This document shows, piece after piece, positions 3,997-48,696 of a DNA stretch of 64,000 bases. The notes beneath the pieces were generated by a model. The model saw only the letters and a list, made by a program, of their open reading frames with translations, searched no databases and had not been told where the DNA came from. The translations under genes were made by a program, and so were the position numbers. Origin of the DNA: a virus. Taxonomy: Duplodnaviria; Caudoviricetes. The first letter of the stretch is position 1, and every line of letters begins with the position of its first letter. Where the stretch lies: positions 1 through 64,000 of IMG/VR virus record IMGVR_UViG_3300011444_000011. One strand, 5' to 3'.

Positions 3997-4069
3997 GGTG
4001 GGGATAGCTTAACGGTAAAGCACTGGCACTGATAACGCCAGAGTCTAAGGTTCGACTCCTGCCCTGCCT
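3997..4069 (+). tRNA. Degenerate tRNA-like gene (possible Ile-GAT; 19-nt anticodon arm)
   Basis: D arm TAGCTTAACGGTAAAGC, anticodon arm CTGGC-ACTGATAAC-GCCAG, T loop GGTTCGACTCC. T and acceptor stems are imperfect. Confidence 0.55.
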
Positions 4070-4154
4070 CTTTGACCCTTCGTACTAAACGCAAGAAATA
4101 CACCGGGCCTATGTCCCGGAAATGATGTATCGCAATCATCAGGGTCATGCCACA

Positions 4155-4688
4155 ATGATACCGCAAATCAAACCGATCGGCGGGACACAAATCTGCTGGG
4201 ACGTATTTCTTCAAGCCTGTACAGATTCGCTGGGGTATTCGCCAATTCGCGGTGTTGACTCACTCGCCCGCGAATTGTCGGACCCGGCCAAACTGCTTGC
4301 TTCACTGGCTGCGTTCCACAACAAGCAAAACGTCAAGGCTCCGCTCGCAGCGATTAGGAACGCTGGCTCACTGCTTCGGCATTTGAGCTATGCGTTCCTA
4401 ATCTACTGCGATGAGCATTTGATATCCGATATCAGGGAACGGTCCCTGCTGAATGTGACTTCGACAAACGCCGCAGATGGCGAGCGGGTTGCATACGTGA
4501 GCGGAAGCCTCTTTGACTTCCATACTGCAACGCTGGAGTGTTGCACCGAAGACTCGCCATTTGATATCCGATATCTATTCGATGCCTTCGTACTCTACTT
4601 TGAGTCGATCGGCCTCGGAGACATCTGGCACGATCAACGGAAGAAAACTCTCAAAGACAAAACCTTCCTTTTGGAATACATACCATGA
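4155..4688 (+). CDS. ThyX/Thy1-fold-like protein, apparently degenerate
   Basis: LLRHLSYAFLI and YVSGSLFDF...SPFDIRYLF resemble ThyX segments, but the RHR-x7-S signature is absent. Confidence 0.4.
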   Translation: MIPQIKPIGGTQICWDVFLQACTDSLGYSPIRGVDSLARELSDPAKLLASLAAFHNKQNVKAPLAAIRNAGSLLRHLSYAFLIYCDEHLISDIRERSLLNVTSTNAADGERVAYVSGSLFDFHTATLECCTEDSPFDIRYLFDAFVLYFESIGLGDIWHDQRKKTLKDKTFLLEYIP

Positions 4689-6664
4689 CGCCAGAAGTTC
4701 TCAAACTTACGATCGGCAAGTACCGATACCCGGTAAATATGTATCGGTTCGAGGGCCGACTATACTTCCAGTTTCCGTTCAACAAGAATTTGATGGCGGA
4801 AATCAAGTGCATGGCCGGGAGTAAGTTTCACTTCTACAACGAAACAGAAGAACGTAAGAAGTTCCTCGCCGCGGAAATGGGCACCGCGAAGATTTGGTCT
4901 GTCACTGATAACCAGCGAAACTGGTTTCAAATTCAGATGATGCAAGGCATCAATATGTTCGAGCGGTACGATTCCCCGCTCAAGCCGGTAGAGCCGCGAC
5001 GTGACTGTTTGAGAGAGAACCAGAAGTTGGGCCTCCAGTTCACGATGACGCGGCATTATTGCATTCTCGCTGCTGAAATGGGTACTGGTAAAACGCTGGT
5101 AGCCATTGAGACGATGGAGCAATCCGGGTTTGAGGACTGGTGGTACGTCTGTCCGCGCGGCGTGATGAAAGAAATCGAGAGGCAACTCCGATCTTGGAAA
5201 TCAACCGCCAAGCCTCGTCTGATGACCTATGAAGGTCTGACGAAGGAAATGAAGAACTGGCCCGAAGGGAAGAAGTACCCCGGCGGAGTTATCTTCGATG
5301 AATCAAGCCGAACCAAGAACCCATTCGCAATCAGAAGTCAAGCGGCCAAATCACTGGCTGACGGCATCCGAAACGATTGGGGAGAACACGGCTATGTGAT
5401 ATTGATGTCAGGATCACCGGCTCCGAAAGCCCCGGTGGACTGGTGGTCGCAATGTGAGATCGCGTGTCCTGGCTTCCTGCGTGAAGGTGACGTTGACAAG
5501 TTCAAATATCGGCTCGGCATCTTCGAGGAAAGCTCGTCGTTGCAAGGCCAGAAGTTCCTCAAGAAAGTGGCGTGGCGGGATGACGACAAACGCTGCAACA
5601 TCTGTGGACTCTACGAAGATCATATTATTCACAGCGAACTTGCTGCGTCAATGGGAGAAGAGAAGCCGCACGCCTTCTTCGGATCAACCAACGAAGTCGC
5701 CAATCTCTACAAGAGAATGGAAGGCTTGGTCATGGTTCAATTCAAGAAGGATTGCGCTGACCTGCCCGACAAACAATACCAGATCATCGAATGCACACCC
5801 AGCAAAGCAATGCTTCGTGCCGCATCGTCGATCACGAACCGGACGAAGAGCGCGGCGCAGGCATTGATCCTGCTGCGAGAATTGTCCGACGGCTTCCAAT
5901 ATCTGGAAGAGCCGGACGGCGAAGTCAGTTGTCAAGTCTGTGCTGGCACCGGGGAGTGTGATGATTTTGAAATCAAACCGGAGTATCAGCAGGCTTATGA
6001 CGCTGGAGACCTTACGTTTGAGCAGGCTGTCGCTGACGAGAAAGTCCAGAAGGTCAGGGCACCGTGCTACGTCTGCGACGCCAAAGGTATGGTGCCGCGT
6101 TATGTCCGAGAGACGCAGGAAGTTGAATGCCCGAAGGAACAAGCCCTTCGGGACTTGCTCGATTATCATTACGATGATGGACGGCTGGTTGTCTACGCTG
6201 GCTTCACTGGATCAATCGAGCGTTGCTGTCGGATTGCGACAGCGGAAGGCTGGGCGATCATTCGTGTAGACGGCCGCGGATGGTCGATGGCCAACGCGGA
6301 CGGTACGATGATGCACGGCGACGCGCTTGATATCTTCCAAGATAAACAGGAAGAACATCCGCGTGTCTGCTTCATCGGCCAGCCCGGTGCGGCTGGTATG
6401 GGTTTGACGTTGACAGCAAGTAAGTCGATCGTCTACTACAGTAACGACTTCAACGCCGAGAGCCGGATTCAGTCGGAAGACCGTATCCATCGTCTCGGTA
6501 TGGACGTGAACAAGGGAGCGACGATTTACGATCTGATCCACTTGCCAACCGATATGCTCGTTCTGAACAATCTGAAGGAAAAGCGACGGTTACAGTCCAT
6601 GACGATGGGACAGGTCGCCGACGCGCTTAAAGGCATCGGAGAAAACGACGAAAGGCTATTCTGA
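4685..6664 (+). CDS. SNF2-family (SF2) helicase with zinc-finger insertions
   Basis: EMGTGKT, IFDES, SGSP, GAAGMGLTLT and QSEDRIHRLG, with insert CQVCAGTG...CYVCDAKG. Confidence 0.9.
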   Translation: MTPEVLKLTIGKYRYPVNMYRFEGRLYFQFPFNKNLMAEIKCMAGSKFHFYNETEERKKFLAAEMGTAKIWSVTDNQRNWFQIQMMQGINMFERYDSPLKPVEPRRDCLRENQKLGLQFTMTRHYCILAAEMGTGKTLVAIETMEQSGFEDWWYVCPRGVMKEIERQLRSWKSTAKPRLMTYEGLTKEMKNWPEGKKYPGGVIFDESSRTKNPFAIRSQAAKSLADGIRNDWGEHGYVILMSGSPAPKAPVDWWSQCEIACPGFLREGDVDKFKYRLGIFEESSSLQGQKFLKKVAWRDDDKRCNICGLYEDHIIHSELAASMGEEKPHAFFGSTNEVANLYKRMEGLVMVQFKKDCADLPDKQYQIIECTPSKAMLRAASSITNRTKSAAQALILLRELSDGFQYLEEPDGEVSCQVCAGTGECDDFEIKPEYQQAYDAGDLTFEQAVADEKVQKVRAPCYVCDAKGMVPRYVRETQEVECPKEQALRDLLDYHYDDGRLVVYAGFTGSIERCCRIATAEGWAIIRVDGRGWSMANADGTMMHGDALDIFQDKQEEHPRVCFIGQPGAAGMGLTLTASKSIVYYSNDFNAESRIQSEDRIHRLGMDVNKGATIYDLIHLPTDMLVLNNLKEKRRLQSMTMGQVADALKGIGENDERLF

Positions 6665-6828
6665 TGTCAAGATCAAATTGCCGATCGAAAGGTGCAGGTT
6701 ATGAATGGTGGAACAAGCGCCCAATGGCCGGAGCTTCGCCGTCGGCACTTAACAAAAGAATCTGCAACCAGATCGAGCGTGCCAGAGCCAAACGCGAGGT
6801 CGAACGTGCCAAATCCGAATTGTCCTGA
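6664..6828 (+). CDS. Small basic protein (54 aa)
   Basis: MSRSNCRSKGAGYEWWNKRP... is translationally coupled (TGATG) to the helicase and is below the ORF track cutoff. Confidence 0.5.
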   Translation: MSRSNCRSKGAGYEWWNKRPMAGASPSALNKRICNQIERARAKREVERAKSELS

Positions 6829-7399
6829 ATGCCACGGAACTGGAATCTATCGCGGCGGGCTGCACGGCCACCCTGAACCGTGCAGCCTGTGCTCGCGTGA
6901 GATTCAGTTCGGCGACGGCGTGACGATTGCTCCTGAATTCGAGAATCCGCCTATTACGATAAAGGCTCCGCAGGCTATTGACCAGTCTGACTACATGATG
7001 GTGGTCAGGGCCGCATGGCGTCACTCGTGGGAAGAACGGCTCGAACGAAAGGGTGAAGTTACTCTAATCGGTAATAGCAAGGAATCTGTGATTATGAACT
7101 CAATGGGCTACATCGCCCACTTGCATAACATTCAGCTTCCATTGCCGGAAGATATTGACGATATTCTTTCTGTGCTCCGGTCGGCGGTCGATGCCGCAGC
7201 CGGTATGGCGATATGGAGAGTAGCCCGATCCCGCGGGCCGGTATACACAGCGCGAGAGTGTCCTATCTCTTTTCACAGAGCATCTGATGATGTTCTTGAG
7301 CAGGTCTACATCTGCCCTGATGTTAAAATCAAATTGGGTGGCCCACGGGTATATGGGTCGGCTGTATTCCACTACTACGCTGATTGGATGCGAAGATGA
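6806..7399 (+). CDS. Hypothetical protein with N-terminal CxxCxGxG zinc finger
   Basis: CPECHGTGIY...PEPCSLC. GTG start inferred (track start 6692). Confidence 0.6.
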   Translation: MPNPNCPECHGTGIYRGGLHGHPEPCSLCSREIQFGDGVTIAPEFENPPITIKAPQAIDQSDYMMVVRAAWRHSWEERLERKGEVTLIGNSKESVIMNSMGYIAHLHNIQLPLPEDIDDILSVLRSAVDAAAGMAIWRVARSRGPVYTARECPISFHRASDDVLEQVYICPDVKIKLGGPRVYGSAVFHYYADWMRR

Positions 7400-8559
7400 C
7401 AAAACCCTCCGAGGGGAAAACCAAGAGCGAAAGTCAGAAGGCAATGGACCCAAGGCCCACAAAGGAACAACAGGAGACTTTGGCTTTACGATCGCAGGTG
7501 ACTCTGTTGACGGTCGAACGAAACCGACTCAAGCGCGAACTCAAATTGGGTGCGATGGAGTACGGTATCTTTCGTGCGCTGGTTGACGAGATGCAGGCCG
7601 TCGTGAGTCCGCTGGAGTCATTGCCGCCGGTTCGTAGAGTGTACGAACCGAACACTGTGAAAGAAACGCTGGTCATGCACTTGTCGGATATGCACGCCGA
7701 TGAGGAAGTTCATCCGCACATGGTTGGCGGACTCGAACGGTATGGCCTCGACGTTGCAACATGCCGTGCCGAAAGGTACGTTGATACTGTAATCAAATTC
7801 TCGCAAGAGACTTTGGCCAATCATCAGTTTGACAACCTTGTCATTTTGAGCTACGGCGACCACACGTCAGGAGAAATCCACGGCGGCGTCAGTCACTCCA
7901 GCTATCATAATCAGTTCAGGAACTCGCTGGCGATCGGTCAGCTTCAAGCCCTGATGATTCGTGATCTGGCTCCGTACTTCAAGAAGGTTGACATCCTGTG
8001 CTTGCCCGGCAATCATGGTCGCCGGACTCCGAAGAAGGAATACAATGGTCCCTGGAACAACTGGGACTATTTGATATCCGAAATCGCAAGAATGCACTGT
8101 GCTGATCTGAAGAACGTGGCGTTCCAGATTCCTGAATGTTTCAGCGTCTGCCTCAACATTGAGGGCCACCAGTTCTACATCGCCCACGGCGACGACATTA
8201 AGTCATGGAACTCGATTCCGTTCTACGGGATCGAACGCAAGACGCGACGGCTGGTTGCCCTGCATCATGCGATGACCGACACGAAGGTTCGTTACTTCGT
8301 CTTCGGCCACTTCCACATGCTGTCAACGATGAGCGACTTGAATGGCGAGACGATCATCAATGGCGCTTGGATCGGTACGAGTCCCTATGGTTACGAGAGC
8401 TTCTCCGGCTACCGTGAACCGAAACAGTTGATCCACGGGGTACATCCGAAGTACGGGATGACGTGGCGACTGGACGTGAAACTGAAAGACGTTGAGGCCG
8501 AAGCCAAAGGCCCGCAGCGTTACAAAATGATCCTTGCGGACAAGGAATTTTCCCAATAG
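7396..8559 (+). CDS. Calcineurin-like metallophosphoesterase with N-terminal coiled coil
   Basis: SDMH, GD, GNHG, HGD and GHFH motifs in order. Confidence 0.85.
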   Translation: MTKPSEGKTKSESQKAMDPRPTKEQQETLALRSQVTLLTVERNRLKRELKLGAMEYGIFRALVDEMQAVVSPLESLPPVRRVYEPNTVKETLVMHLSDMHADEEVHPHMVGGLERYGLDVATCRAERYVDTVIKFSQETLANHQFDNLVILSYGDHTSGEIHGGVSHSSYHNQFRNSLAIGQLQALMIRDLAPYFKKVDILCLPGNHGRRTPKKEYNGPWNNWDYLISEIARMHCADLKNVAFQIPECFSVCLNIEGHQFYIAHGDDIKSWNSIPFYGIERKTRRLVALHHAMTDTKVRYFVFGHFHMLSTMSDLNGETIINGAWIGTSPYGYESFSGYREPKQLIHGVHPKYGMTWRLDVKLKDVEAEAKGPQRYKMILADKEFSQ

Positions 8560-8599
8560 AACTCTTTTGATATCAGTATCAACTTCCGAGGAATGAACC

Positions 8600-9460
8600 A
8601 TGACCCAGCCCGTCGCTCCTACAACGGGAATGCTCGTTCTCGACATTCCGATGGCGCGTATCTACTGTGACAGTAATTTCAACTGTCGCGGTGCGATCCG
8701 GCCATTTGATGTCGCTGATCTTGCAACGTCAATCCGGGATCAAGGATTACAATTCGCTATCAGTGTGCAACCTGCGGCGGATGTCCAGGGCGGTTTGCCA
8801 GTGAATCAAGAGGATGGCTTGCCATACGAGTATCGTATCGTGGCAGGTCATCGCCGGTACACAGCAGTCAAAGTGCTGAAGTGGGCCACGATTCCTTGCA
8901 CCGTCCGCGAGAACCTTGACGAAAAGAAGGCTCGTATCCTTAATCTCGTTGAGAATTTCCAGCGACAAGACTTGAATATCCTTCAAGAAGCGGAAGCACT
9001 CAAGCACCTGCACGAAGCAGGCGTGCCCCGCGAAACTGTCGCCCGCGAAATTGGTATGAGCGGCGGCTGGGTACAGGTTCGTTTTAATCTGCTCAATCTG
9101 CCGATCGAGATTCAGCAAGAGGCGGCTGCTGGGATGATTACCCAGTACCACATCAAGACGTTGTGTACTTTGAAGTCGCCGGAAGCACAGTACGAAGCTG
9201 TGCGTAAAATCAAAGAGGCCAAGCTGAAAGGCGAGAAGGCTCCGACTATCGGCGTCAGGAAGGCGAAGACCGCCACCATCAAGAAGAAGAGAACCGAGTC
9301 TGAAATGTTTGATATGATTGAGATTCTGGCGCAGACAACGCTGGGATATGGCATCCATACACGGGTTCTTGCATGGGCCGCAGGGGAAATTTCGTCGGCG
9401 GAATTCTTCTGCGATATCAAGAAAGCGGACCCGACGTTCTTTCCGCCGCCGGAATTTTGA
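8600..9460 (+). CDS. parB: ParB/Spo0J-family protein 2 (canonical CTPase motifs + HTH)
   Basis: LATSIRDQGL...IVAGHRRY...LVENFQRQDL, then HTH RETVAREIGMSGGWVQVRFNLLNLP. Confidence 0.92.
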   Translation: MTQPVAPTTGMLVLDIPMARIYCDSNFNCRGAIRPFDVADLATSIRDQGLQFAISVQPAADVQGGLPVNQEDGLPYEYRIVAGHRRYTAVKVLKWATIPCTVRENLDEKKARILNLVENFQRQDLNILQEAEALKHLHEAGVPRETVAREIGMSGGWVQVRFNLLNLPIEIQQEAAAGMITQYHIKTLCTLKSPEAQYEAVRKIKEAKLKGEKAPTIGVRKAKTATIKKKRTESEMFDMIEILAQTTLGYGIHTRVLAWAAGEISSAEFFCDIKKADPTFFPPPEF

Positions 9461-9468
9461 GGAACCTA

Positions 9469-9675
9469 ATGTACGAAATCTTGCTGCGTATGTTGGCGTG
9501 GTTCACTTGGGCTCACATTCAGTGGCTCATGGTTCAGTGTCTGAACGACAAGGGACTGTATCACGCCAGTTACAAGATGGCTATTCGGCTGTCCACGAAA
9601 GAGTACCAGAATAAGACCTGGGACTCGATCACCCTCGCCGACGCGATGAAAGCGCTGAAGCCCAATGATCCGTAA
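9469..9675 (+). CDS. Hypothetical protein
   Basis: GAGG RBS; fits the gene chain. Confidence 0.55.
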   Translation: MYEILLRMLAWFTWAHIQWLMVQCLNDKGLYHASYKMAIRLSTKEYQNKTWDSITLADAMKALKPNDP

Positions 9676-10033
9676 TGTAACCCACGAATACGATATCGTG
9701 ACGGGGACTGATTTCAGTATCAGTTTCGCCCGTCACGGTATCTACGTTTCGGGACACGTTCACACCTGGAATTGGCAGCCAGAATGTATCGGTACTCGCG
9801 GCATCTTCGCCGTCCGGCTCGAACTCTGGAGCCCGTTCCTGGCCGGGACGGTCTGGTGGCAGGAGAGAACCTGGAACCCGAAAGAGGGAGTTGGTGAGAT
9901 GCAATTCACCAGCACGCCCGAAGGGACTCCGATCCTGATAATGAACGAGCACAAGGAACCGTTGCTCGAATGGCGTAAGGGTCAGATCACCTACCACAAC
10001 CGAAGACATCAAAATGATCTACTTCGACACTGA
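9665..10033 (+). CDS. Hypothetical protein
   Basis: Overlapping ORF in the operon. Confidence 0.55.
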   Translation: MIRNVTHEYDIVTGTDFSISFARHGIYVSGHVHTWNWQPECIGTRGIFAVRLELWSPFLAGTVWWQERTWNPKEGVGEMQFTSTPEGTPILIMNEHKEPLLEWRKGQITYHNRRHQNDLLRH

Positions 10034-16733: not shown

Positions 16734-17240
16734 GTGCGGTTAATCGAAAGCCCAAATAAGTTCTCCTGCCTACCTTGTTCGTTTGCAATGGTACTTGAGA
16801 TCAGCCTTAGCGAAATGTTGGGAAGGATCGGACATAACGGCGATGAGATCATTTGGCCTCACTTACCGGAACCTCAGCGACGGCGTGCATTCCACATACA
16901 GGAATGCGCGGCCGTCGCTTTTTCGTTAGGCTTCGGTGTCATGGAATTCCAGTTTGGGCCTACGTTGACGCCTGACGGGAAATCCGTGTATGACGTGCCA
17001 GTGAATGTCAATATCCGAGAATTGATGTCAGTATCAAATGGCGTGCTCATGGGTCGCGGACGCCAACATGGACACGCTGTCGGTTGGGATGGGAAGCACG
17101 TTCACGACCCGCTAGGCATCATTTATGATATTGAAAATCAAAACCTATTTGCCCCTTTCAGTTATTTCCTAATATCAAATCAATTTTCGCACTTCGGATT
17201 TGCAAAATCTCCAGTATCAAATCAAAATGAAAAATCTTGA
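16734..17240 (+). CDS. Papain-like (C39-like) cysteine peptidase
   Basis: SCLPCSFAMV (Cys), GHAVGWDG (His), HDP (Asp). Confidence 0.55.
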   Translation: MRLIESPNKFSCLPCSFAMVLEISLSEMLGRIGHNGDEIIWPHLPEPQRRRAFHIQECAAVAFSLGFGVMEFQFGPTLTPDGKSVYDVPVNVNIRELMSVSNGVLMGRGRQHGHAVGWDGKHVHDPLGIIYDIENQNLFAPFSYFLISNQFSHFGFAKSPVSNQNEKS

Positions 17241-19485: not shown

Positions 19486-19586
19486 TCCTGGCAACAGGCT
19501 AGAGAATCTCTTTTGAAAGGTGGTGTTAATGCAGCAATCTTAGGTTTGTTTGATTTTTGATTCCAATATCACTTTTGGAGATTACG

Positions 19587-20003
19587 ATGCGTAAACGCAA
19601 CATGCAACTCGGTGCAACAATCCGAGAGTATCTCACGAATCACCCAGAAGCTACGACTGAAGAAGTCATGGCCGCGACGGGTGCCAAAGTCAAACAACAG
19701 GTCTACCAGCAAAAGACCTACATGAAGCTGAACAACAAGGTTCGGCGAACAACGTCGCGTATGACGGAGTCGCAGCGACCTGCGATTGCCGCCGCGAATG
19801 GTGTCCCCGATCCGGTGAACATGGAAGTATCGCTGCCGGCGGCTGGACTCCGCCTCAAGCTCAAGGAAGGCAAGAAGATGGTGGGAACCCTGGGTATTTC
19901 GCACCAGGGCATTCGTTTCACGCCGGCAAACGGAAAGAAGATGCCGGCCAATCAAATGCCGTGGCGGGTGCTGAAAGCCCTGTCAGGCATCGAGGTCGGC
20001 TAG
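19587..20003 (+). CDS. Basic hypothetical protein, possible N-terminal HTH
   Basis: IREYLTNHPEATTEEVMAATG; GGAG RBS. Confidence 0.55.
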   Translation: MRKRNMQLGATIREYLTNHPEATTEEVMAATGAKVKQQVYQQKTYMKLNNKVRRTTSRMTESQRPAIAAANGVPDPVNMEVSLPAAGLRLKLKEGKKMVGTLGISHQGIRFTPANGKKMPANQMPWRVLKALSGIEVG

Positions 20004-20021
20004 TCGTAACAACAGTCCTCT

Positions 20022-20049
20022 GCCCGGTTGATATCAGTATCAACCGGGC
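20022..20049 (+). terminator. Hairpin with the dispersed palindrome at its apex
   Basis: GCCCGGTTGATATCAGTATCAACCGGGC just after a stop codon. No strong U tract. Confidence 0.45.
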
Positions 20050-20260
20050 TTGAGGCATTAGCAGAGGTTAGCTTAGTTTGGACCCACCAAAGGGAACCAC
20101 CTGACAAAGAAAGGCGGTGCGCCATGAAGTTCTAACCCTCAAATGCAAATGATCTTCAAGGCAGAGATGATGCAAACCGAGTGTGAGAATCAAAATGGAG
20201 TCAACCCTTACGGAGAACGTGATACCATGAACTAGAGCCAGAAATGGCTTGCTGGTAAAA

Positions 20261-20335
20261 GTCCGCTGTAGCTCAGTGGTAGAGAGGGACGGGCAAGACC
20301 TGTCCAGGTCGCGGGTTCGAATCCCGCCAGCGGAC
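20261..20335 (+). tRNA. tRNA-like gene with a non-canonical anticodon arm (identity undetermined)
   Basis: Acceptor GTCCGCTG/CAGCGGAC, D arm TAGCTCAGTGGTAGAG, perfect T arm GCGGG-TTCGAAT-CCCGC. The anticodon arm GGACGGG-CAAGA-CCTGTCC lacks U33. Confidence 0.75.
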
Positions 20336-20349
20336 CTGTGTGTTGCGTT

Positions 20350-23925: not shown

Positions 23926-24131
23926 TCTGTCTTGAAACCGGCCAGATGAAGGTGAATGATATTGAAGATCAAATTGACCGATGGAGCGTATGGTTTCTCA
24001 CGCCCGAAGGATCGTTCCCGACTCTTCAAGAGGCGAGGGATTCATGCACCAAAATCAATTACCCGCATCACCTAATCCGTCCGGTGCCGGTTGCCCTGGG
24101 CCAGAAGATATTCGAAATCATAAATTGGTGA
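23922..24131 (+). CDS. Hypothetical protein
   Basis: ATGA coupling, GGAG RBS. Confidence 0.55.
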   Translation: MICLETGQMKVNDIEDQIDRWSVWFLTPEGSFPTLQEARDSCTKINYPHHLIRPVPVALGQKIFEIINW

Positions 24132-24409
24132 AACGCCAACGATGGAAAGAGTGGCGACGACGTTTCGACGGACTGTTTTCCTGGCTCGGTGCTGGTACGA
24201 CCGAGCCGTTCATCATCGAATGGCTACCCGAGGAAAATCATGATAGTGATTGATGATCCGGTGTATCTCGAAATCACAATCAGCGGTGATATGACATTCA
24301 TCGTTGTTATCGACGCAGAAGATGATCCGGCGCAATTTGCTCTCGGACTCTCAAACAAGATCAACAAGTCAGTTGATTTCAATGTCATTCCTTTCCTTAA
24401 TGGTGGCAC

Positions 24410-24793
24410 ATGATAGTGAAAGGAAGACTGACGCCTGAAGGTTCAGACGGTGAATTCACGGCCCAGATCATGGACCGAAACCGGGGCATCCGAGTTGACC
24501 ATACCACGGTGCCAGCATTCTGGGTTGAGGCTCTGTTTGATACTGAAGACATCGACAAGCTGGCGACCAAGAAGGTCTACATCATGACGCGGGAAGTAAC
24601 CGGAGAGAACACGACGGTTCTCGGCACCTTCCGCCGGATGGGTGAGGCAAGACGGATCGCTTGGCAGCAGAAGCGACCGGAGTATGCTAAGATTCATTGC
24701 TGGGTGTCGCGGCGTGTCGAGACTCCGCAGGAACGGCTAAGACTCAACGCTTCTGATATCAGTATCGTTGTGACGGAGTACCCAATCCTATGA
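24410..24793 (+). CDS. Hypothetical protein
   Basis: ATGA coupling. Confidence 0.6.
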   Translation: MIVKGRLTPEGSDGEFTAQIMDRNRGIRVDHTTVPAFWVEALFDTEDIDKLATKKVYIMTREVTGENTTVLGTFRRMGEARRIAWQQKRPEYAKIHCWVSRRVETPQERLRLNASDISIVVTEYPIL

Positions 24794-28386: not shown

Positions 28387-29372
28387 GTCCGTCATCCGTC
28401 AAAGCGTGGGACTCGAATCGGGACGAGTTCTATCTGAAGTATCTGGCCGAGAATCGGCCGGAGAAGTTCCCGCAAACCAAACCGATGGCTGCGGGGTCCG
28501 CATTTGATGCTGCAATCAAATCGTATCTCTACTACAAGCTGTTCGGGAACTACGGCCCGAACAACCTGTACGAGCCGACGACAATCTTCGAGGCACAAGT
28601 CGAGAAGCACAATTGGGATTGGGCACGCCCGGTCGGGAAGCACATTTTCGACCGTTATTGCCTATGCGGTGGCATGGCCGATCTGATGCTCGAATTGCAA
28701 AAAGCGGCTGGCCCGCCGCGATTTGAGTTCAGCATCGAAGGTTTCATCACCGGGAAGGCTGCGAGCGTGCCCGTTTTGGGCAAGCCTGACGTGTTCTTCG
28801 TGAACGCCGAGGGTGCGAGAGTCATTCTGGACTGGAAGGTCAACGGCTATTGCAGTAATAGCGCGACGAGCCCGAAGGCCGGATACGTCAAGTGTCGGGA
28901 CGGTTGGCTGCCCGGCGAACGGAAAGCGACGAGGGGTTCGGGAATGCCGCACGCAAGCTGCATCCCGACCAGCTATCTTGGTATCAGTATCAACAAGCAG
29001 ATACTGATGGAACAGGTCGATGTGGACTGGGCCAACCAGTTGTCGATCTACTCCTGGCTGCTTGGCGAGGAAGTCGGCTCACAAGACCTGATTATCGGGA
29101 TCGACCAAATCTGCGGTCAGCCCGGCGAATCAGGGATTCCGTGGCTCCGATTCGCCAGCCACAGATGCCGAATCGGTGGCGAATATCAGTTCGCGTTGCA
29201 TCAACACGTTCAGGATATCTGGGCTCGCATCGAGTCCGGCCATATCTTTGACACCATGACCGAGGAACAGTCGCTGGTCCATCAACAAGACCTCGACGCG
29301 ATGGCGAAGAACCTGACCGGCGACGACGATCTGTCCAAATTCATGAGCCAGATGCGTCTGGCAAATGCGTAA
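28365..29372 (+). CDS. PD-(D/E)XK (RecB/Cas4-like) exonuclease
   Basis: YLSPSS, GSAFD, GKPD, ILDWK, QLSIY. Confidence 0.82.
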   Translation: MRKPKYLSPSSVKAWDSNRDEFYLKYLAENRPEKFPQTKPMAAGSAFDAAIKSYLYYKLFGNYGPNNLYEPTTIFEAQVEKHNWDWARPVGKHIFDRYCLCGGMADLMLELQKAAGPPRFEFSIEGFITGKAASVPVLGKPDVFFVNAEGARVILDWKVNGYCSNSATSPKAGYVKCRDGWLPGERKATRGSGMPHASCIPTSYLGISINKQILMEQVDVDWANQLSIYSWLLGEEVGSQDLIIGIDQICGQPGESGIPWLRFASHRCRIGGEYQFALHQHVQDIWARIESGHIFDTMTEEQSLVHQQDLDAMAKNLTGDDDLSKFMSQMRLANA

Positions 29373-29566
29373 TCCATTTTGATATCAACATCAACCGAGA
29401 GCCATGTGACGAACAACCCATTTGGTAATTGGCGTCCAGGGCTCAAGGGCGGTGCATCCCCAGAGTTTTACAAAGATGCTTTGACGGGACTGTACGTGTT
29501 ACTCGGCATGATGTTTGGTTTCACTGTGCTCATGCTCATTGTGTTATTCTTTCTGAAAGGTTGCTT

Positions 29567-37708: not shown

Positions 37709-37716
37709 AAGGTACT

Positions 37717-39626: not shown

Positions 39627-39627
39627 C

Positions 39628-40161: not shown

Positions 40162-40271
40162 GAAGCTCTGTGCCTGAGCATGGCCAAAGGGTGATGGTAA
40201 CAAGAGCGGGAAGGTGGACGTTACCAGTCCTAGTCCTACCGCCCGCAGGTTCGAATCCTGTCAGAGATTTC
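40162..40271 (+). ncRNA. tRNA-like RNA with an expanded, possibly pseudoknotted anticodon/variable region
   Basis: Acceptor-like CTCTG/CAGAG, class II D arm TGCCTGAGCATGGCCAAAGG, T arm GCAGG-TTCGAAT-CCTGT, and a TGGTAAC/GTTACCA stem with an 18-nt loop. Confidence 0.6.
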
Positions 40272-40416
40272 GAAGCGTGAACGTGGTTCGATTCCACAAA
40301 AGCCCTGTGTTGTCGCGGGTAATCGAAAGCCGCAGCGTGTATCGGCGAGGGTATCGTCCGAGGCTAGGTGGCCATCACAGGGTTCTTTGATATTAACATC
40401 AACTCACGGAGATAGC

Positions 40417-41674: not shown

Positions 41675-42142
41675 ATGAATCTGCCAAACAAGAAGAACCG
41701 TGACCGCATCCGGCAAATGGCTATCGGAGAAGCAACGGAGGCGCAAATCGCAGCCGAAAGGGTAAAGCGGGACAAGGAAGCGAAAGAACTTGAGGAAATG
41801 CAGGCGAGGGCGAAGGCACGCTATCTGCGGCTCGTGCAGAAGATTCCTGATGTGGTGATTAAGGCAATCGCGGACGGCAAGGTCGAAGTTGATATTATCG
41901 TCCCCGAAAACCCGCCAAATTACACGACCGAAGCGACAGCCGAAGATTGTGAAGTCGCACGGCTGGTCATGGAGTTCTTCGCCAATGAGAAAGACTACCG
42001 ATTCCAATTCAAGCAAGTCCCGGCCGACTACAACACTTCCAGAGAGACAGCCGACGGCGGTTGCACCGACACAGAGCGGGTCCACAGGATGCTCCCCGGA
42101 ATCATCATCGGTTGGTATAATATCGCTGATCCGGCAGCGTAA
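41675..42142 (+). CDS. Hypothetical protein (N-terminal coiled coil)
   Basis: 155-aa ORF with an RBS. Confidence 0.6.
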   Translation: MNLPNKKNRDRIRQMAIGEATEAQIAAERVKRDKEAKELEEMQARAKARYLRLVQKIPDVVIKAIADGKVEVDIIVPENPPNYTTEATAEDCEVARLVMEFFANEKDYRFQFKQVPADYNTSRETADGGCTDTERVHRMLPGIIIGWYNIADPAA

Positions 42143-42265
42143 TGCCTATCGGCTGGTCAAACGTGATCTTAATATCAATGCGGGGTTGATCGGACAGAAT
42201 GGCCCGGTTCGGGCATCGGCGATCGACGACGTTGAAACCCTTTTGCAGATACTGGAGTCCAGATA

Positions 42266-44182
42266 ATGGGATGCGATTATTGCAACAACACCGGAACAGT
42301 GATCCCGTTCGTCGGCGAAGCTCACCCGTGCCCACGATGTACGGTTGTCATCAAGTCACCGCCGTTGAACGACCAGCCGAACTTCCAGGCCACGTTGAAC
42401 GTGAAGTTCGGGCAGGTCTACGATGATGCGGCCCACAAGATGGTGCCCGCTTCGACGGCAATCACCGCTGGCGAAGGCATCAAGCGGTTCATGGTGCTGA
42501 ACAGCATCCTGTATTCCGGCATCAAACAGACGGTCATCGAGAAGCTGGCCCACCGGCCTATCGAACAGCAGTGGGTTCGCTTCCAGAGCTACTGCCGTTC
42601 GGTGCTCCGCGTCGAGATGCCTGACGACTACATCAACAAGCCGGATGATGTGCAAGATTTGTTGAAGGCCCGCGTCACGGTTACTTTCGACCCGAGTGTC
42701 AAGGTGACTTTCGACCCCGAAGCCTTGAACGTCCCAGTCTTCCACAAGGATGATCCGCGACTTGCTGAACTGCTGAAGCCGATCGGCGAAAGAGGACGCT
42801 TCGAGATCAGCGAGGGGTCGATTATCGGCGGTGGCGTCTATATCGCCAATCACGGATTGCCGCCGGGGAAGCTCGTCGCCGTGACGCCGATGCGGAATCC
42901 TCTCTTCCAGCATCAACAAGCTGCTGTCGATGAAATGATGGATCGCTACGATCGGGACGTTGCCCGCATTGATACCAGTCGCACCTACGCTGATACTGGT
43001 ATCATTCCGGCCCGGTGGGCACAAGAGAGCGAAGACATACTTCAGGAAAACATGATCGCCGGCTGGCTCGTCAAGCAGCAAGGCAAGGAATGGCCAGAGT
43101 GTATGCAGATGCCCGACGGAAGGGTATTTCAGCGGGGAAAGGGGAAGTCGGAGTACAAGTATCAAGGTCAGCCGCTAACGGTTGCCGACTGCGATATGCT
43201 CCGCACGGCCATCGAAGTGATGAACAAGGCTGACTGTGACGTGAACTATGAATCGACGCTCGACCCGTCGGAACTCTGGTTCATGGTCTTCCCGCATCTG
43301 CCCGGCCCCGCCAGCAGAACGGAGATCAAGGTTCTCAAGTGCGTGCGTGACGCCCGCGAGAAAAGCTACATCAGCGAAGGCGCGGCATACGATATTGCCA
43401 AGCTGCCGTTGATGCACCAAGAAGCCGCACTACGGCTTGTGGTTCCGGGCATCCAGACGTTTGTGAAGTACACCTGCGAACCGCAGAAAGATATTGCATT
43501 CGAGTTGTCGCTGCCACTTGGAGCGACGGTAATGTGGGAGCACAAGCCCGGCCACAAGTACAAGGTGCTCTGTGAAGTCAAGGATGCAATCGACAAGCGG
43601 CTTATAAGCCCCGTTGTAGCAGTACGGATCGCCCGTCAGGTCTTCCGTAAGCAGAGGCAAATGCTGACGACGGCATTGGCCGAAGCCGACGGAATGTTGA
43701 TGGGAACGGGTGCAACGAAGATGGGTAAGAGCTTGAAGATGGCTGTTGCCAGAGGCAAGCGAAATATGCCGACGATCGAGGACATCCTAAGCCTGATGTC
43801 TCTTGCCCAGCAGCGTATCAGCACTGATATTCAAATCAAAGATGGTCAGGAAGAAGACCGTCACAAGGTTTGGTTACTGCTCCGGGAAATGCGTGTCAAG
43901 CTGCAACGTGTCAATGTGCAGATGATGGGTGCGGTGCATCAAAGCGACCGGGTTCCGGCGATGCACAACCCCTCTGAATCGGTACTGAACCAGGAAGTGG
44001 TTCAGGGCTTCAACGATGCGTTGGCATACATGAACGAGAAACGGCCAACCGAGAAGCCGGCATCCGAGTTCATGGCGGGTTACATCCCGGCGTTGAAGCG
44101 TATCAACGATGGGCGTCCGCACCCTGAACATTTTAAGAAACAGGTCGAAGCTGACCCCGATCCCGGAGCCGACTCATGGTGA
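42266..44182 (+). CDS. Large zinc-finger mosaic protein with ParB-like helical repeats
   Basis: CDYCNNTG...CPRC; PLFQHQQAAV; two V.DA....IS...A..IA.....Q repeats; MGKS. Confidence 0.65.
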   Translation: MGCDYCNNTGTVIPFVGEAHPCPRCTVVIKSPPLNDQPNFQATLNVKFGQVYDDAAHKMVPASTAITAGEGIKRFMVLNSILYSGIKQTVIEKLAHRPIEQQWVRFQSYCRSVLRVEMPDDYINKPDDVQDLLKARVTVTFDPSVKVTFDPEALNVPVFHKDDPRLAELLKPIGERGRFEISEGSIIGGGVYIANHGLPPGKLVAVTPMRNPLFQHQQAAVDEMMDRYDRDVARIDTSRTYADTGIIPARWAQESEDILQENMIAGWLVKQQGKEWPECMQMPDGRVFQRGKGKSEYKYQGQPLTVADCDMLRTAIEVMNKADCDVNYESTLDPSELWFMVFPHLPGPASRTEIKVLKCVRDAREKSYISEGAAYDIAKLPLMHQEAALRLVVPGIQTFVKYTCEPQKDIAFELSLPLGATVMWEHKPGHKYKVLCEVKDAIDKRLISPVVAVRIARQVFRKQRQMLTTALAEADGMLMGTGATKMGKSLKMAVARGKRNMPTIEDILSLMSLAQQRISTDIQIKDGQEEDRHKVWLLLREMRVKLQRVNVQMMGAVHQSDRVPAMHNPSESVLNQEVVQGFNDALAYMNEKRPTEKPASEFMAGYIPALKRINDGRPHPEHFKKQVEADPDPGADSW

Positions 44183-44505
44183 AAATCGACGGATACCCTC
44201 GGCCGAGTAACAACTACGAGGCCATGAAGTTCCTGTTCGCGCATAAGGTGACTTTGGAAACAGGCCGTTGTGAGGCCGGTTTCCTGCATCTTATCATTCA
44301 CTGTGGCGAAATGTTTGTTGATACTAAAATCAGTGACGAAGACCGGACGATCGGGGAACTGTTCGACGCTTTCCTGTGTCCGGCCGCTTGTGCTCTGTAC
44401 AAGTCCATCTACGAACTGTGCCCGCACGGTTCAGACCCCAAAGCATGTGAGGATTGCCGTGGAGTATCTGGTACAACTGAAGGGCGGTCAGAGAATCCGG
44501 GGTGA
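44176..44505 (+). CDS. Hypothetical protein
   Basis: GGAG RBS; C-terminal CPHG...CEDC. Confidence 0.55.
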   Translation: MVKIDGYPRPSNNYEAMKFLFAHKVTLETGRCEAGFLHLIIHCGEMFVDTKISDEDRTIGELFDAFLCPAACALYKSIYELCPHGSDPKACEDCRGVSGTTEGRSENPG

Positions 44506-44655
44506 GATCATCGAGGTCCACCTTGATATCGGTGTCGAAAAGGTCAAGATTAAGGGCGAGCATATCAACATGATGTTCCGCCCCGATCTCGGCTGGTGCG
44601 ATTTGACCTGCGGGTTCGTGCTTGGCATCATTGCCCACGCATTCGTGAGGTATCT

Positions 44656-44943
44656 ATGCGGCTGAAAATCTTCTTGCAGAAGATCGCACGCTGCAAGACC
44701 TGGCGCATGCAATGTGATGGCACAATCAGAAACCGGGAATGCCAGTGCCCGGTCGAATATGTCGCGGGCGTCGATGCTGGCCAGAAGTTTGAGGATTTGT
44801 GCGTGCTCGTGGATCAACATAGGCTACCGCCTACCGTTGCTGTCATCCGTGCCGCCGACCATAAGCCCATCAGCGTCGATCACAGCTATCACAATCTGAT
44901 TGAGTTACGGCGACTCTTGGGAAAGGCATGTGGTTTGCTATGA
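44656..44943 (+). CDS. Hypothetical protein, paralog family A
   Basis: MRLKIFL...W...R...CP...AAD...LRRLL...GL. Confidence 0.6.
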   Translation: MRLKIFLQKIARCKTWRMQCDGTIRNRECQCPVEYVAGVDAGQKFEDLCVLVDQHRLPPTVAVIRAADHKPISVDHSYHNLIELRRLLGKACGLL

Positions 44944-45242
44944 GACTCCGAGAATTTCTGGCGAAGATGGGTGAACACAAGTGGATGCTCGTGGACTCAT
45001 TTGGTGCCAAGCTGCGGACGAAGGGTGCAATGTGCTGCCCGATTGAGGCCGTAATCGGGTTGCCCTCTGGCTGCCCGAATTGCGTGTTGAAGGAAGCCGG
45101 CGTGCGGATGAAGATTCCGTACATCGAGGCTCTGGTTCAATGTGCCGATATGCGTATCATCGGCTGTCAGTATCACGATTACTTCAATTTGCTGGCTTTG
45201 AGGCGACAGCTTCTAATAGCCGCTGGACTGGGCGATATATGA
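44940..45242 (+). CDS. Hypothetical protein, paralog family A
   Basis: MRLREFL...KW...LR...CPIEA...IPYIEALVQCAD...LRRQLL. Confidence 0.6.
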   Translation: MRLREFLAKMGEHKWMLVDSFGAKLRTKGAMCCPIEAVIGLPSGCPNCVLKEAGVRMKIPYIEALVQCADMRIIGCQYHDYFNLLALRRQLLIAAGLGDI

Positions 45243-45276
45243 AATGGCTCGTGGTAATTTTTATTACGGTGTTGCT

Positions 45277-45669
45277 ATGATTTACGAACAGATCGTAGCC
45301 GACACGATGGACAAATCGCTGCTGTGGCGACAGTGCGAACTCAATGACCGATGGCTTGGGTCGCACCGCTTCTACAAGGTTGTCGTCCGAGAACACTTCT
45401 TCTCGGTAACGCTGCATGTCGTAACGCGGAACAACCTCTGTTTTGATGTCAATATCAAACGACGGACGTGGATGAAGTTCTTCGACCGTGTCTGGACGCA
45501 AGGCCATCTGGACGAATACTCCGTCTTACAGGAAATGACCAACTATGCTGACTCCAAGCCCGCAGTGCATGACCTGGAGACATACGCCCGCCGCGCTGCA
45601 CAGGCGGCGACTATTCCGGGATCAGAAGAATCAGGCACTCGCTGTCCTGATAGTGCTGTGCGACCATGA
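45277..45669 (+). CDS. Hypothetical protein
   Basis: In the gene chain. Confidence 0.5.
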   Translation: MIYEQIVADTMDKSLLWRQCELNDRWLGSHRFYKVVVREHFFSVTLHVVTRNNLCFDVNIKRRTWMKFFDRVWTQGHLDEYSVLQEMTNYADSKPAVHDLETYARRAAQAATIPGSEESGTRCPDSAVRP

Positions 45670-46120
45670 GGTTAGCCACAATCGAAGCTGCATCTACTGT
45701 GGCCTCGACGAAACAACGTACTGGCGGCTGCACAGGATGACGGTCGCCGGTCTTTACACGACCGAGAGAATGGTAACGGAGCTACTCCATGCGTGCCCAT
45801 CAGCGTTACGGACATTGGAAGCGGGCATCCGTGCAGGCACGCTACTACCTAAAACGGAACAAGTACGCGGATCAAAGCAAGATCGTGACCGTCTACAATC
45901 GTTTCGGGCAAGAGCAGGGTGTCCGAGTTAAGGGCCGGCACGGCTGGCCCGTCGGTGATTTGATTTCTTCCTATCGACCGTAAAGGTGCAATATGTGGAT
46001 TTACCGTTGGCTGGAGCACAGTGACAAATCTTTGATCGAGAAAGTCGCTGGAGCGATGTACGCCTTTTTCTTCCTTGTGATCCTGGGTTTCCTGTTGTTC
46101 ATGCTCCTGATGGTGCTGCT

Positions 46121-46495
46121 GTGATAGTTCACAAGAATTGCCGAATCGCTTTCGGCTGCACACGGATTGTGATACTGGTATCAAAATGGGCAATCAAGAT
46201 ACCGTCGTTCTACTCCTGGCGGCTGTTCTTGCTGGGCTTGCTGGCCAACATGCAAGAGGCACAGTTCAGCAAGACGGGCTGGCCGGAGCTATGCCCAGTA
46301 AGTTGGTCGCTTTGGGGCGGCTGGCTCGTAATTATGAAACGGGCTGAAGTGCTATCCGAAACAGATTTCTGGATACACAAACTTCGACTCAAAATGATGG
46401 TCAATCAACCCGATTACGTTGTGCCTTGCGAAATGAAGCACGACAGTTTCGGCATCCTAGACGGCAAGTTTGTTGTCGTCGATTACGGGAATTGA
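46121..46495 (+). CDS. Conserved phage protein, possibly a minimal kinase-like fold
   Basis: GCTRIV...AIKIP...NMQE...FGILDGKFVVVDYG. Confidence 0.45.
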   Translation: MIVHKNCRIAFGCTRIVILVSKWAIKIPSFYSWRLFLLGLLANMQEAQFSKTGWPELCPVSWSLWGGWLVIMKRAEVLSETDFWIHKLRLKMMVNQPDYVVPCEMKHDSFGILDGKFVVVDYGN

Positions 46496-46496
46496 T

Positions 46497-46790
46497 ATGA
46501 AACACGATCGAGCTATGATTCCGGCATCTAACGACAAGCTGCGAGAGTTCGCGGATATCGCCGAATTAGTGGCCCATGAACAGGCGTCCCACGACCAGAG
46601 CCCTTGCCCATCAATGAACGACATGGTCAGGGATGCCTGGAATTCGTTGACCGAGAAACGGCAGATTGTCATACTCGTCGCCTTGCAGCGGATCGCCCTT
46701 GACGATTGCATCAAGTACGGAGCATTGTTACGGGAAGCTGCAACCGTGATTACTGTTGGTCAAGTCCTAGAAGAATTGGCACGAAGATGA
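46497..46790 (+). CDS. Hypothetical protein
   Basis: In the gene chain. Confidence 0.5.
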   Translation: MKHDRAMIPASNDKLREFADIAELVAHEQASHDQSPCPSMNDMVRDAWNSLTEKRQIVILVALQRIALDDCIKYGALLREAATVITVGQVLEELARR

Positions 46791-47074
46791 ACAGGATCAC
46801 AAGAAGCGAGACTCCGTTGAGTTTCCTCGATCTGGCCAACGTCGATGAAATCCGTGCGATCATCCAGCCGGGCCTCTCGCGGGAACGGGCTTGCAGGACT
46901 ATGGCCCTGGCTTGATTGAGTGGCTTGGCTACGGAGACGTGCAGAAACAGATCGACGAGGCTTGGATGCAGTTGTCGACGGAACGACAACACGAGATTCT
47001 GCTTGGTTGGCGGAATACCGTAAATCAGCGAGTCGAGAGTTTTGATACTGCAATCAGAAAAATCGAGGACGGCC

Positions 47075-47707
47075 ATGAGAATAATCAGCGGGTTCCATGA
47101 TTATTACGATCCACTTTGCAAGCACGACGCTGACCGAGAGACGCTGTACATACGGAAAACCGAAGAGGCAGCACCGATCGAGTTTCCCCGCGTCTGGCTT
47201 GACAATACGTGCAGAATCCGACTGCTATGCTTCGCCGGGAAACTGATACCGCATGTCGAAATCAACATCATGCACCGCGGCGAGTGGAAGACAAAGGTGT
47301 GCTGGCAGCGGGCGAAAGCCAAGGATCATGTCGAAGAGTTCACGACGAAGGCCAATTTCAGGATGCTGAAACGCCGTGCCTACGGTATCTTGCGTGACCT
47401 GGATCGGTTCTTCGACTGGAAGCCAGAGAACGTCTACCCCAATACACCGATCTGGTTCGCAACCAGCGAGGCCACTACGACCGACGGATACCGGACATGG
47501 AAGAAGCGGACGTTACTGAATCCGCGGGTTATGGACGTGTATCCGGGGTTTGTGAAAATCCTGCCACCGGCACAGGCGTATCAGGAACTGGTGATGTGGC
47601 ATGGAAGAATGGCGCGGCCCGAACCTAACGTCCCGGAAATGAGCGACGCGGATAAGATCGCTGGCCACGGCTTCGATAAGTTCTCATTCAGAAAGCCTAA
47701 GCAATGA
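47075..47707 (+). CDS. Conserved phage hypothetical protein
   Basis: MRIISGFHDYYD...AYQEL...DKIAGHGFDKFSFRK. Confidence 0.65.
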   Translation: MRIISGFHDYYDPLCKHDADRETLYIRKTEEAAPIEFPRVWLDNTCRIRLLCFAGKLIPHVEINIMHRGEWKTKVCWQRAKAKDHVEEFTTKANFRMLKRRAYGILRDLDRFFDWKPENVYPNTPIWFATSEATTTDGYRTWKKRTLLNPRVMDVYPGFVKILPPAQAYQELVMWHGRMARPEPNVPEMSDADKIAGHGFDKFSFRKPKQ

Positions 47708-47931
47708 ACAACCCGTTAGATATTGATATACGCCGGGCCGTCTGTAACAGCCCGCACTGCTCTTACCCGCACGCCCAGAGACTCACGCAGTTGATGCTTG
47801 CCGAAGAACGACTGGCACGCCTGGAAGCGGGTGGCGTTAATAACTGGGAGTGGTATCACGAATCCCTGCATCCGACGGATAAGCCATCACTGGATGATTT
47901 TGAGGAGGCGCTGAATAATGTCCAACCCTGA
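47704..47931 (+). CDS. Hypothetical protein
   Basis: LEAGGVNNWEWY motif; ATGA coupling. Confidence 0.55.
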   Translation: MNNPLDIDIRRAVCNSPHCSYPHAQRLTQLMLAEERLARLEAGGVNNWEWYHESLHPTDKPSLDDFEEALNNVQP

Positions 47932-48257
47932 AGCTGACAAGCGCGAGGTCTTCATCATCTGCGTCAATGACGCCATTCGGCAAGAGGCGTTTGAGAACAT
48001 CGACGTGGCGATTGAGTTCGTCATCAAGACCGTGCTTCCTAAGCTGGAAGACAACCTGCGGTCACGGACGACTCGCAAATTCACTTCCATCGGCACACGT
48101 CTCGATCCGTTCTGGTCAAATGATATGTGCAGTGTTCGCATCAGAACCCTGGTACTGCAATGACACTCCTGAAACGCTTGATATTGAATATCAATGATCG
48201 CTGGTGGGTTCGGGTCTGCCAGTGGCACTACTCCAAGTTACCCGGTTCAGATAGGGC

Positions 48258-48563
48258 GTGGTGATGGAAAGACTCATTGAAATCGTGATCGAAGACACAA
48301 TCGCCGGCAGGCTTCGCTGGGAATGCGGCGGTCACAGCGATACGTGGTCGGCCAGAGCTTCGACGTATACACTGTCCCAAGTAACCAAAGGTATCTGGAA
48401 CTGGTACTTCGTCATGTACACGAACTCCGGTGTCAGTCGCCTTAAAATCAGGCCGTGGCAGTGGAGAAAAATCCAAGCCGCCCTACCGCCCAAACTTCTG
48501 ACACCGGAACAAGCAGCGGCGGCTATTGGATTCAATGACGCAGAGGTCGGATTGCATGAGTAG
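48258..48563 (+). CDS. Hypothetical protein
   Basis: In the gene chain. Confidence 0.5.
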   Translation: MVMERLIEIVIEDTIAGRLRWECGGHSDTWSARASTYTLSQVTKGIWNWYFVMYTNSGVSRLKIRPWQWRKIQAALPPKLLTPEQAAAAIGFNDAEVGLHE

Positions 48564-48566
48564 CAC

Positions 48567-48696
48567 GGAAGTCATGGTGGAAATACTGGGCCGCAAGCCC
48601 TGTCGGTAGACACGCAGCCCTCTAACTCGCGGGCCGTTAGAAGGCTGTACCCTGTTGCAATGCGGGGTGTACGGGTTCGAGTCCCGTTGACTTCCT
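48567..48696 (+). tRNA. tRNA-Leu-like gene with hairpin insertions in the D loop and anticodon loop
   Basis: Acceptor GGAAGTCA/TGACTTCC, D arm GTGGAA...GGTAGACAC, anticodon stem CAGCC/GGCTG around a 23-nt loop, long variable arm, T arm ACGGG-TTCGAGT-CCCGT. Confidence 0.75.

Follow-up and report, generated by a model that had tools for sequence, protein, structure and literature searches.

What does a phage keep transfer RNA (tRNA)-shaped genes for, if none of them has a normal anticodon arm? The question is raised by the virus record IMGVR_UViG_3300011444_000011, 94,423 bp long and judged 97% complete, whose first 64 kb (64,000 nt) form the window analysed here. The window contains four tRNA-like genes, t1 (3997-4070), t2 (20261-20336), t3 (40162-40271) and t4 (48567-48696). 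All four are intergenic and lie on the strand of the genes, the plus strand, and in none of them is the anticodon arm normal. They look like four tRNA-derived genes, two with intact bodies and two resembling decaying copies, and most of them probably do not read codons. The explanation favoured here, put forward tentatively, is that t2 and t4 are maintained as tRNA-shaped RNAs that do not decode and also serve as processing points, and that t1 and t3 are decaying.

A canonical anticodon arm is taken as 17 nt, a 5-bp stem and a 7-nt loop in which position 33 is U and position 37 is a purine. The arms of t1 and t2 are 19 nt long, that of t3 is about 34 nt and that of t4 is 33 nt. When read with a 7-nt loop, only t1 has U33, provided that an A.C layer is accepted in its stem; t2 has C or G at this position. 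The elbow bases G18 G19, T54 T55 C56 and G53-C61 are present in all four elements. A preliminary description of this DNA had listed the coordinates and arm lengths of the four genes, GG in every D loop, TTCGA in every T loop and no encoded CCA. The coordinates and arm lengths derived from the sequence match for all four, and so do the GG and TTCGA (4/4) and the missing CCA (0/4).

With default settings ARAGORN detects t1 (score 109.0) and t2 (111.7; 20262-20336, as Leu AAG) only, and allowing introns adds t4 (107.6) and t3 (92.1; called at 40163-40271). The Rfam tRNA model (RF00005, a full cloverleaf with a curated cut-off of 29 bits) gives 47.4 bits to t2 and 28.6 bits, just below the cut-off, to t1; t3 and t4, searched alone, are unmatched at E<=10. 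The extra bases in the alignments of t1 and t2 to this model are those of the anticodon arm. A strict shape scan, which requires a perfect T arm, at least seven of eight acceptor pairs and a D arm with GG, recovers t2, t3 and t4 and two other matches that are probably due to chance, the expectation being about 0.5 to 1 chance match per genome. ARAGORN finds no transfer-messenger RNA (tmRNA), and the permuted tmRNA model matches only a 13.6-bit fragment. No Rfam intron family matches the window; a group I intron core takes about 200 nt or more, and the inserts considered here are 16 to about 35 nt long.

t2 has an intact class I tRNA body. Its acceptor (20262-20268 / 20328-20334, with a possible outer pair 20261:20335) is paired at 7 of 7 positions and the stem of its T arm (20311-20327) at 5 of 5, the D arm occupies 20271-20285, and all elbow bases are kept. 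The sole departure is two extra nucleotides in the anticodon arm (20287-20305), 11 nt where the Rfam model has 9. This 19-nt arm consists of 7 bp and a 5-nt loop, CAAGA, and when folded alone it forms a closed hairpin of -10.1 kcal/mol. U33 is absent whether the loop is read with 7 or with 9 nt. A half-site of TGATAYYRRTATCA lies 5' of t2 at 20220-20230.

t4 has a class II, Leu-type body with two hairpin inserts. Its 8-bp acceptor (48567-48574 / 48688-48695, discriminator 48696) and the 5-bp stem of its T arm (48671-48687) form an 8/5 branch; the D stem is at 48577-48579 / 48611-48613 and the variable arm at 48649-48668. One insert is a hairpin of 4 bp and a 5-nt loop (48588-48600), which sits in about 20 extra nucleotides of the D loop, 5' of the G18-G19 pair. 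The other extends the anticodon arm (48615-48647), whose separate fold agrees with the minimum free energy structure of the whole element. The stem strands 48615-48619 / 48643-48647 enclose 23 nt (48620-48642), and the 5 bp are continued by a C.A mismatch and a 6-bp helix (48621-48626 / 48636-48641) closed by a 9-nt loop (48627-48635). In the 6-bp helix a complementary strand pairs with the would-be anticodon, and the arm alone folds with -13.6 kcal/mol. Both inserts are self-contained hairpins in loops, and no stem is disrupted.

The integrity of the t4 body becomes apparent upon excision in silico. When 8,470 combinations of boundaries for the two inserts were scored with ARAGORN, t4 without both inserts reached 130.9, against medians of 104-122 for the tRNAs of ten related phages. 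The best cuts take 20-21 nt from a start at 48583-48585 and 16 nt from 48625-48627 onwards, and the resulting anticodon is UAG, CAG or CUA depending on the site of the 16-nt cut. The inserts were also considered as a mobile mini-element, an idea rejected on finding no second copy of them in the genome. The tRNA-Sec model (RF01852), whose cut-off is 47 bits, matches t4 only in part (17.3 bits), and a UCA anticodon is lacking.

The preliminary description had noted 8-bp acceptors in t2 and t4. These are real and are of two kinds, the extra pair being outer in t2 (20261:20335, G-1:C73-like) and inner in t4, where it gives the 8/5 arrangement. A G-1 paired with C73 is the signature of bacterial tRNA-His. 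The same outer pair as in t2 is seen in an element of the related phage G008 (L012:7145-7275). The same description had placed the changes chiefly in the anticodon arm, which holds for t2 alone; those of t4 are in two loops, and t1 is also damaged in the T stem and t3 in the acceptor and core. Its term "non-decoding tRNA mimics" is fair for t2 and t4, with their intact bodies and closed anticodon regions, and is not supported for t1 or t3. As judged from the predicted folds, the best reading is that t2 and t4 would be unable to read codons as transcribed, since the anticodon region is closed in a stable hairpin.

Strain variation around t4 provides a further line of evidence. The element nearly exactly fills its 146-nt intergenic gap. 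Strains about 95-99% identical to the phage are present in three other sediment or freshwater metagenomes. One strain contig (48385-48705) has five substitutions, all in 179 nt of the upstream open reading frame and none in t4. A second (48652-48802) has four substitutions in 106 nt downstream, and in the last 45 nt of t4 the discriminator alone is changed. These contigs indicate, weakly but consistently, that the constraint on t4 is no lower than that on the coding sequences next to it. A second, independent assembly from ENA (L130), also of this phage, departs from the window in 6.3 kb only by a 15-nt indel and therefore adds no variation at t4. A 15-nt tandem repeat at 50985-51030 (unit starting ATCGGTTAATGCGG) has three copies in the window and two in L130.

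t1 is a borderline tRNA-Ile(GAU)-like gene. Its acceptor (3997-4003 / 4062-4068) is followed by a 3-nt spacer, the D arm is at 4007-4021, and the 19-nt anticodon arm (4023-4041) consists of 5 bp, an A.C layer and the 7-nt loop CUGAUAA. This is the exact canonical Ile loop closed by the extra A.C layer, and in the Rfam alignment the two inserted bases flank the loop. The T arm is reduced to three Watson-Crick pairs (4048-4050 / 4058-4060) and has a 2-nt deletion and a shortened 3' strand. A mimic is thus not supported for t1, which keeps a canonical loop and has a broken T stem. Directly 5' of it, at 3960-3992, a copy of the genome-wide TGATAYYRRTATCA palindrome lies within a longer hairpin.

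The slot occupied by t1 is flanked on one side by the homologue of gene 3068-3985 (minus strand) and on the other by the SNF2 helicase. In relatives it holds a canonical tRNA-Thr(UGU) (G001) or tRNA-Arg(UCG) (G002), and in four others it is empty; t1 is therefore the counterpart of ordinary, exchangeable accessory tRNAs. Canonical tRNAs of relatives undergoing decay without covariation had been named beforehand as the finding that would speak against mimicry, and t1, whose slot holds ordinary tRNAs elsewhere, comes close to that case. It is best regarded as a degenerating tRNA gene that may still act weakly as tRNA-Ile(GAU).

t3 is a class II tRNA-like relic with a D arm of the Tyr/Ser type, which passed the strict shape scan. 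The acceptor (40163-40170 / 40262-40269) has one G.A mismatch, and the D arm (40173-40190) and T arm (40245-40261) are convincingly class II. The core between them (40191-40244) can adopt two mutually exclusive folds, either a 7-bp stem (40195-40201 / 40220-40226) enclosing 18 nt or nested helices at 40206-40210 / 40242-40246 and 40213-40219 / 40233-40240. Single excisions gave a best ARAGORN score of 106, with no unique solution, and did not restore a canonical tRNA. The idea of a mimic is not supported for t3 either, since it does not resolve into a tRNA plus an insert. Immediately 3' of it, a stub (40272-40298, plus strand), identified from the sequence and a T-arm scan, repeats the word GAAGC from the start of t3 and continues into a T-arm-like hairpin (40282-40298) with no matching 3' acceptor strand. 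The stub is read as the remnant of a second tRNA gene, and t3 together with it is best read as a degenerating tRNA gene.

That tRNA-shaped RNAs can serve other ends in this lineage is seen in the relatives. Six larger, distant relatives have tRNA-shaped genes of 98-138 nt, and in 6 of the 10 examined, canonical tRNAs scoring 116-122 are obtained when a single insert is taken out, of 60 nt in one case and about 50 nt in the others. The insert often interrupts the anticodon stem at 28/29, and 31/32 is a further site. In several insert-bearing relatives A replaces U at position 33. The inserts share a strand-specific word, with 22 matches on the gene strand against 2 in controls, and the same module is found free-standing and circularly permuted in intergenic clusters. 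Its variable helix has a perfectly complementary partner in 12 of 18 copies, against 8% when partners are swapped, and in a model-based alignment both sides change at 6 of 10 pairs, a figure reached by none of 500 shuffles.

The published Ro-binding word GNCGAA(N0-1)G is part of the module. A protein with the TROVE domain (PF05731) of Ro60 is encoded by G006, G008, G026, G027 and G003, and in the first four, the motif-bearing genomes that were searched for it, its gene directly adjoins a module cluster. Because the Ro-binding word is present and TROVE genes adjoin the clusters, the modules are identified as YrlA-type Y RNAs, some of them built on full tRNA bodies. For the same reasons the insert was dropped as a candidate for a new mini-intron or ribozyme. 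The arrays lie at L012:6900-7650 (G008 84680-85319), L031/L034:16200-17200, G006 68656-69396 and G026 19490-20138, and the Rfam YrlA model misses these Y RNAs. They show that the lineage keeps tRNA-shaped RNAs for non-decoding work.

The four elements of the phage itself are not Y RNAs. Its genome (G000) has no TROVE match at E<=0.01 and no match to the Ro-binding pattern of the relatives. With the covariance model of the module the relatives yield 12 matches, the window is empty at E<=1, and the YrlA family RF02553 matches neither the window nor the elements. A decayed Y RNA module in the t3 core or the t4 inserts was rejected as well, the pattern and the model being empty in the window and GGGCCG not enriched. 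Genes with an RNA ligase domain or RtcB genes (RtcB in G006) occur in the Ro60-bearing relatives, at G006 48157-49131, 24022-24468 and 91900-92460, G008 70685-71224, G026 28950-29501 and G027 54067-54630; the phage is without any.

How might t2 and t4 be made? No sigma-70-like promoter or intrinsic terminator was seen beside t1, t2 or t4, and a weak promoter-like match (9/12) lies about 80 nt upstream of t3, within an open reading frame. With no promoter or terminator of their own, t2 and t4 are presumably co-transcribed with their neighbours as part of operon transcripts. Host RNase P and RNase Z, or RNase E with exonucleases, could then excise them, and the host CCA enzyme may tail the released RNAs by analogy with YrlA. 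In M. smegmatis the tRNA-like Y RNA YrlA undergoes cleavage and CCA tailing in vivo, and RNase P cuts it in vitro (PMC4201824). Excision would free a stable tRNA look-alike and at the same time sever the mRNA between the neighbouring genes. The anatomy of the elements, their position between genes, the intact state of t2 and t4 and the lack of the relatives' Ro60 system are directly observed; we infer the expression, the processing and any role of the released RNA. Among the roles proposed in the preliminary description a processing signal fits best, because no promoter or terminator of their own was seen. A decoy for anticodon nucleases is the least natural of them and is unlikely, because the loops that such nucleases read are altered or buried.

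Several observations weigh against t2 and t4 being maintained non-decoding RNAs. The elements differ in the kind of abnormality and the four anticodon arms have no common design, although one dedicated function would predict a shared one. No orthologue of t2, t3 or t4 was found in any collection searched, and no RNA sequencing run containing the phage is listed. The conservation of t4 comes from two low-depth contigs and has a rough combined probability of about 0.01 in comparison with coding flanks only; the first of these contigs also has, at low depth, a 1-nt deletion in the C run of the t4 variable arm. The t4 inserts may be template-switch mutations that inactivated the gene so recently that decay has not followed. 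Finally, the ARAGORN scores of t1 and t2 resemble those of ordinary low-scoring tRNAs in the nearest relatives, and some decoding by both might still take place.

The strongest competing explanation, although rather unlikely, is that all four are dead tRNA genes, hit by indel or template-switch events and decaying without function. tRNA content and identity vary freely at the syntenic slots of the relatives, which are often empty, as a free turnover of such genes would have it. At a second slot, 3' of the homologue of 16734-17240, the relatives have tRNAs of varying identity, and the one in G009 is a tRNA-like gene of 68 nt with a 4-nt loop closing the 4-5-bp hairpin that forms its anticodon arm. 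In keeping with death of the genes, t1 and t3 are damaged beyond the anticodon arm, a truncated stub follows t3, every element is abnormal in its own way, and no gene for a CCA enzyme, RNA ligase, RtcB or Ro60 hints at a dedicated pathway in the phage. The points against this explanation concern t2 and t4. The exons of t4 are perfect (130.9 after excision), as are the stems of t2, and both events in t4 are self-contained loop hairpins. Across related strains t4 is conserved at least as well as its coding flanks, and it exactly fills its gap, though phage genomes usually delete useless DNA.

An improbable explanation is that the elements are, or become, decoding tRNAs. t1 would read AUY as Ile(GAU) despite its six-layer stem, t2 would open to a 9-nt loop, and the t4 hairpins would be removed, as a protein-dependent mini-intron, to give Leu(UAG/CAG) or an amber suppressor (CUA). 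The exactly canonical Ile loop of t1 agrees with this, as does the fact that t4 minus 16 nt and about 20 nt is a top-scoring tRNA. "Enigmatic" conserved introns are also on record in Lak megaphage tRNA genes (PMC6784885).

The 8/5 branch of t4 is likewise compatible with decoding. An 8-bp acceptor with a 5-bp T stem, a 13-bp branch, is found in 11 of the 80 tRNAs that ARAGORN reports for the phage family, and most of these have canonical anticodon loops (Leu, Ile, Thr, Gln, Lys, Arg, Asn). The branch was for this reason rejected as proof of exclusion from translation. The carriers include the Leu genes UAA and UAG of G001 (L005:1321-1494), both missed by the Rfam tRNA model, tRNAs of G010, G003, G008, G015 and G026, and the window element at 48567-48696. 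Bacterial tRNA-Leu is class II. Class I bodies with Leu anticodons (UAA, AAG) occur at L014:20017-20092 and L029:7431-7504 and in a reverse-strand element of G026 (67228-67350).

Against decoding, t4 would have to be freed of two inserts separately, including the one in the D loop. By inspection its arm has no bulge-helix-bulge geometry; the helix runs on unbroken apart from a single 1x1 mismatch, and 3-nt bulges are absent. The genome has no group I core and no ligase, RtcB or endonuclease gene, and splicing of t4 is therefore possible only by host enzymes. The 12-layer arm is short for a substrate of RNase III. A suppressor is not called for by any recoding of TAG: the idea that recoded stop codons need the CUA anticodon was rejected on finding that TAG readthrough joins no pairs of open reading frames. 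t2 has no U33 in any reading, and the T stem of t1 is defective.

Two unorthodox variants, taken together, are quite improbable. In one, t4 and perhaps t2 would be a caged tRNA, for Leu or as an amber suppressor, in which a complementary strand of the same RNA sequesters the anticodon in a cis helix until a host or phage nuclease and ligase remove the hairpins. If true, this would be a timed one-codon switch, using a protein-dependent splicing route not described for bacteria. In the other, the four would be Ro60-independent mimics that soak up defence enzymes gripping the elbow or acceptor.

Weakest of all, and very doubtful, is the proposal that the elements are decoys or sponges for host tRNA-targeting defences, be they anticodon nucleases or enzymes that grip the acceptor and elbow: such defences and phage tRNA counter-measures are widespread (PMC10264068, PMC11464382, PMC11555353, PMC12851939), and the acceptor and elbow bound by some of these enzymes are kept in the elements, but the known counter-measures are reported to be working tRNAs with cleavage-resistant loops and not loop-less mimics (PMC10264068), a loop that is buried or missing would escape enzymes that read it, and the four elements share no design.

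The virus is treated as a bacteriophage from freshwater sediment; its DNA polymerase belongs to family A, which points to a bacteriophage. Besides this polymerase, the window encodes SNF2- and Dda-like helicases, an ATP-dependent DNA ligase, several ParB-like proteins and one DNA methylase, and nearly all of its genes are on the plus strand. No close relative was found among viral contigs, metagenome contigs or 5.8 billion proteins, and the nearest polymerases of the relatives are 35-49% identical to that of the phage. Viral and genome collections contain neither the exact 3' half of t2 nor that of t4, so that no clue to the host came from them. In the phage genome no CCA enzyme, RtcB or RNA ligase gene was found, nor a tyrosine integrase; the elements were on that account rejected as remnants of attachment sites. 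On the minus strand, 55020-55140 matches the Rfam Phe leader below threshold (30.5 bits, E 0.45, where the cut-off is 55); it is a long hairpin whose 3' stem resembles a terminator.

The tRNA genes of phages are usually explained in one of two ways, as codon supplements or as substitutes for tRNAs that the defences of the host have cleaved. The T4 stable RNAs species 1 and 2 (rnaC, rnaD) have tRNA-like ends, are processed with tRNAs and do not decode, and their function is unknown. They are part of a tRNA operon and have no full cloverleaf, in contrast to t2 and t4, which are complete cloverleaves altered at the anticodon region only, plus the D loop in t4. Nuclease-escaping phage tRNAs reportedly keep a 7-nt loop and still decode. 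The elements described here, with arms of 19 to 33 nt that are closed, differ from them; what they have in common with those tRNAs (van den Berg et al. 2023, PMC10264068) is that the departures are concentrated in the anticodon loop.

YrlA (Chen et al. 2014, PMC4201824; RF02553) is likewise a non-coding, non-decoding RNA of tRNA shape with D and T arms. The phage differs in having no TROVE gene and no GNCGAA-type helix, and its elements are scattered rather than arrayed. The tRNA genes of Lak megaphages have short conserved inserts of no known intron class and need intron-tolerant finders (Devoto et al. 2019, PMC6784885). t4 is similarly found only with introns allowed, and its excision restores a canonical, high-scoring tRNA. 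It differs in having two shorter inserts (16 and about 20 nt), one of them in the D loop, no conservation across genomes and an unaltered genetic code. Mukai et al. 2017 (PMC5389517) name a 13-bp (8/5) branch only for tRNA-Sec, and allo-tRNAs are 8/4 or 9/3. t4, t3 and several tRNAs of the relatives resemble these in having a long variable arm and a branch other than 7/5, here 8/5; t4 differs from tRNA-Sec in having no UCA anticodon, and the allo-tRNAs are not 8/5. There are thus partial published antecedents both for non-decoding tRNA look-alikes and for hairpin-interrupted phage tRNA genes (PMC4201824, PMC6784885).

A caution for annotation follows. Default tools would call t1 a tRNA-Ile and t2 a tRNA-Leu, and t4 can be called an intron-bearing tRNA-Asp or a suppressor. 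The inserts of about 50 nt in the relatives, with their Ro-binding helix, could be mistaken for a new class of intron. For the biology of these phages, t2 and t4 would add to the case that the tRNA shape is used beyond decoding, for example as stable scaffold, processing signal or mimic, in a lineage whose other members build partner RNAs for Ro60 on the same tRNA bodies.

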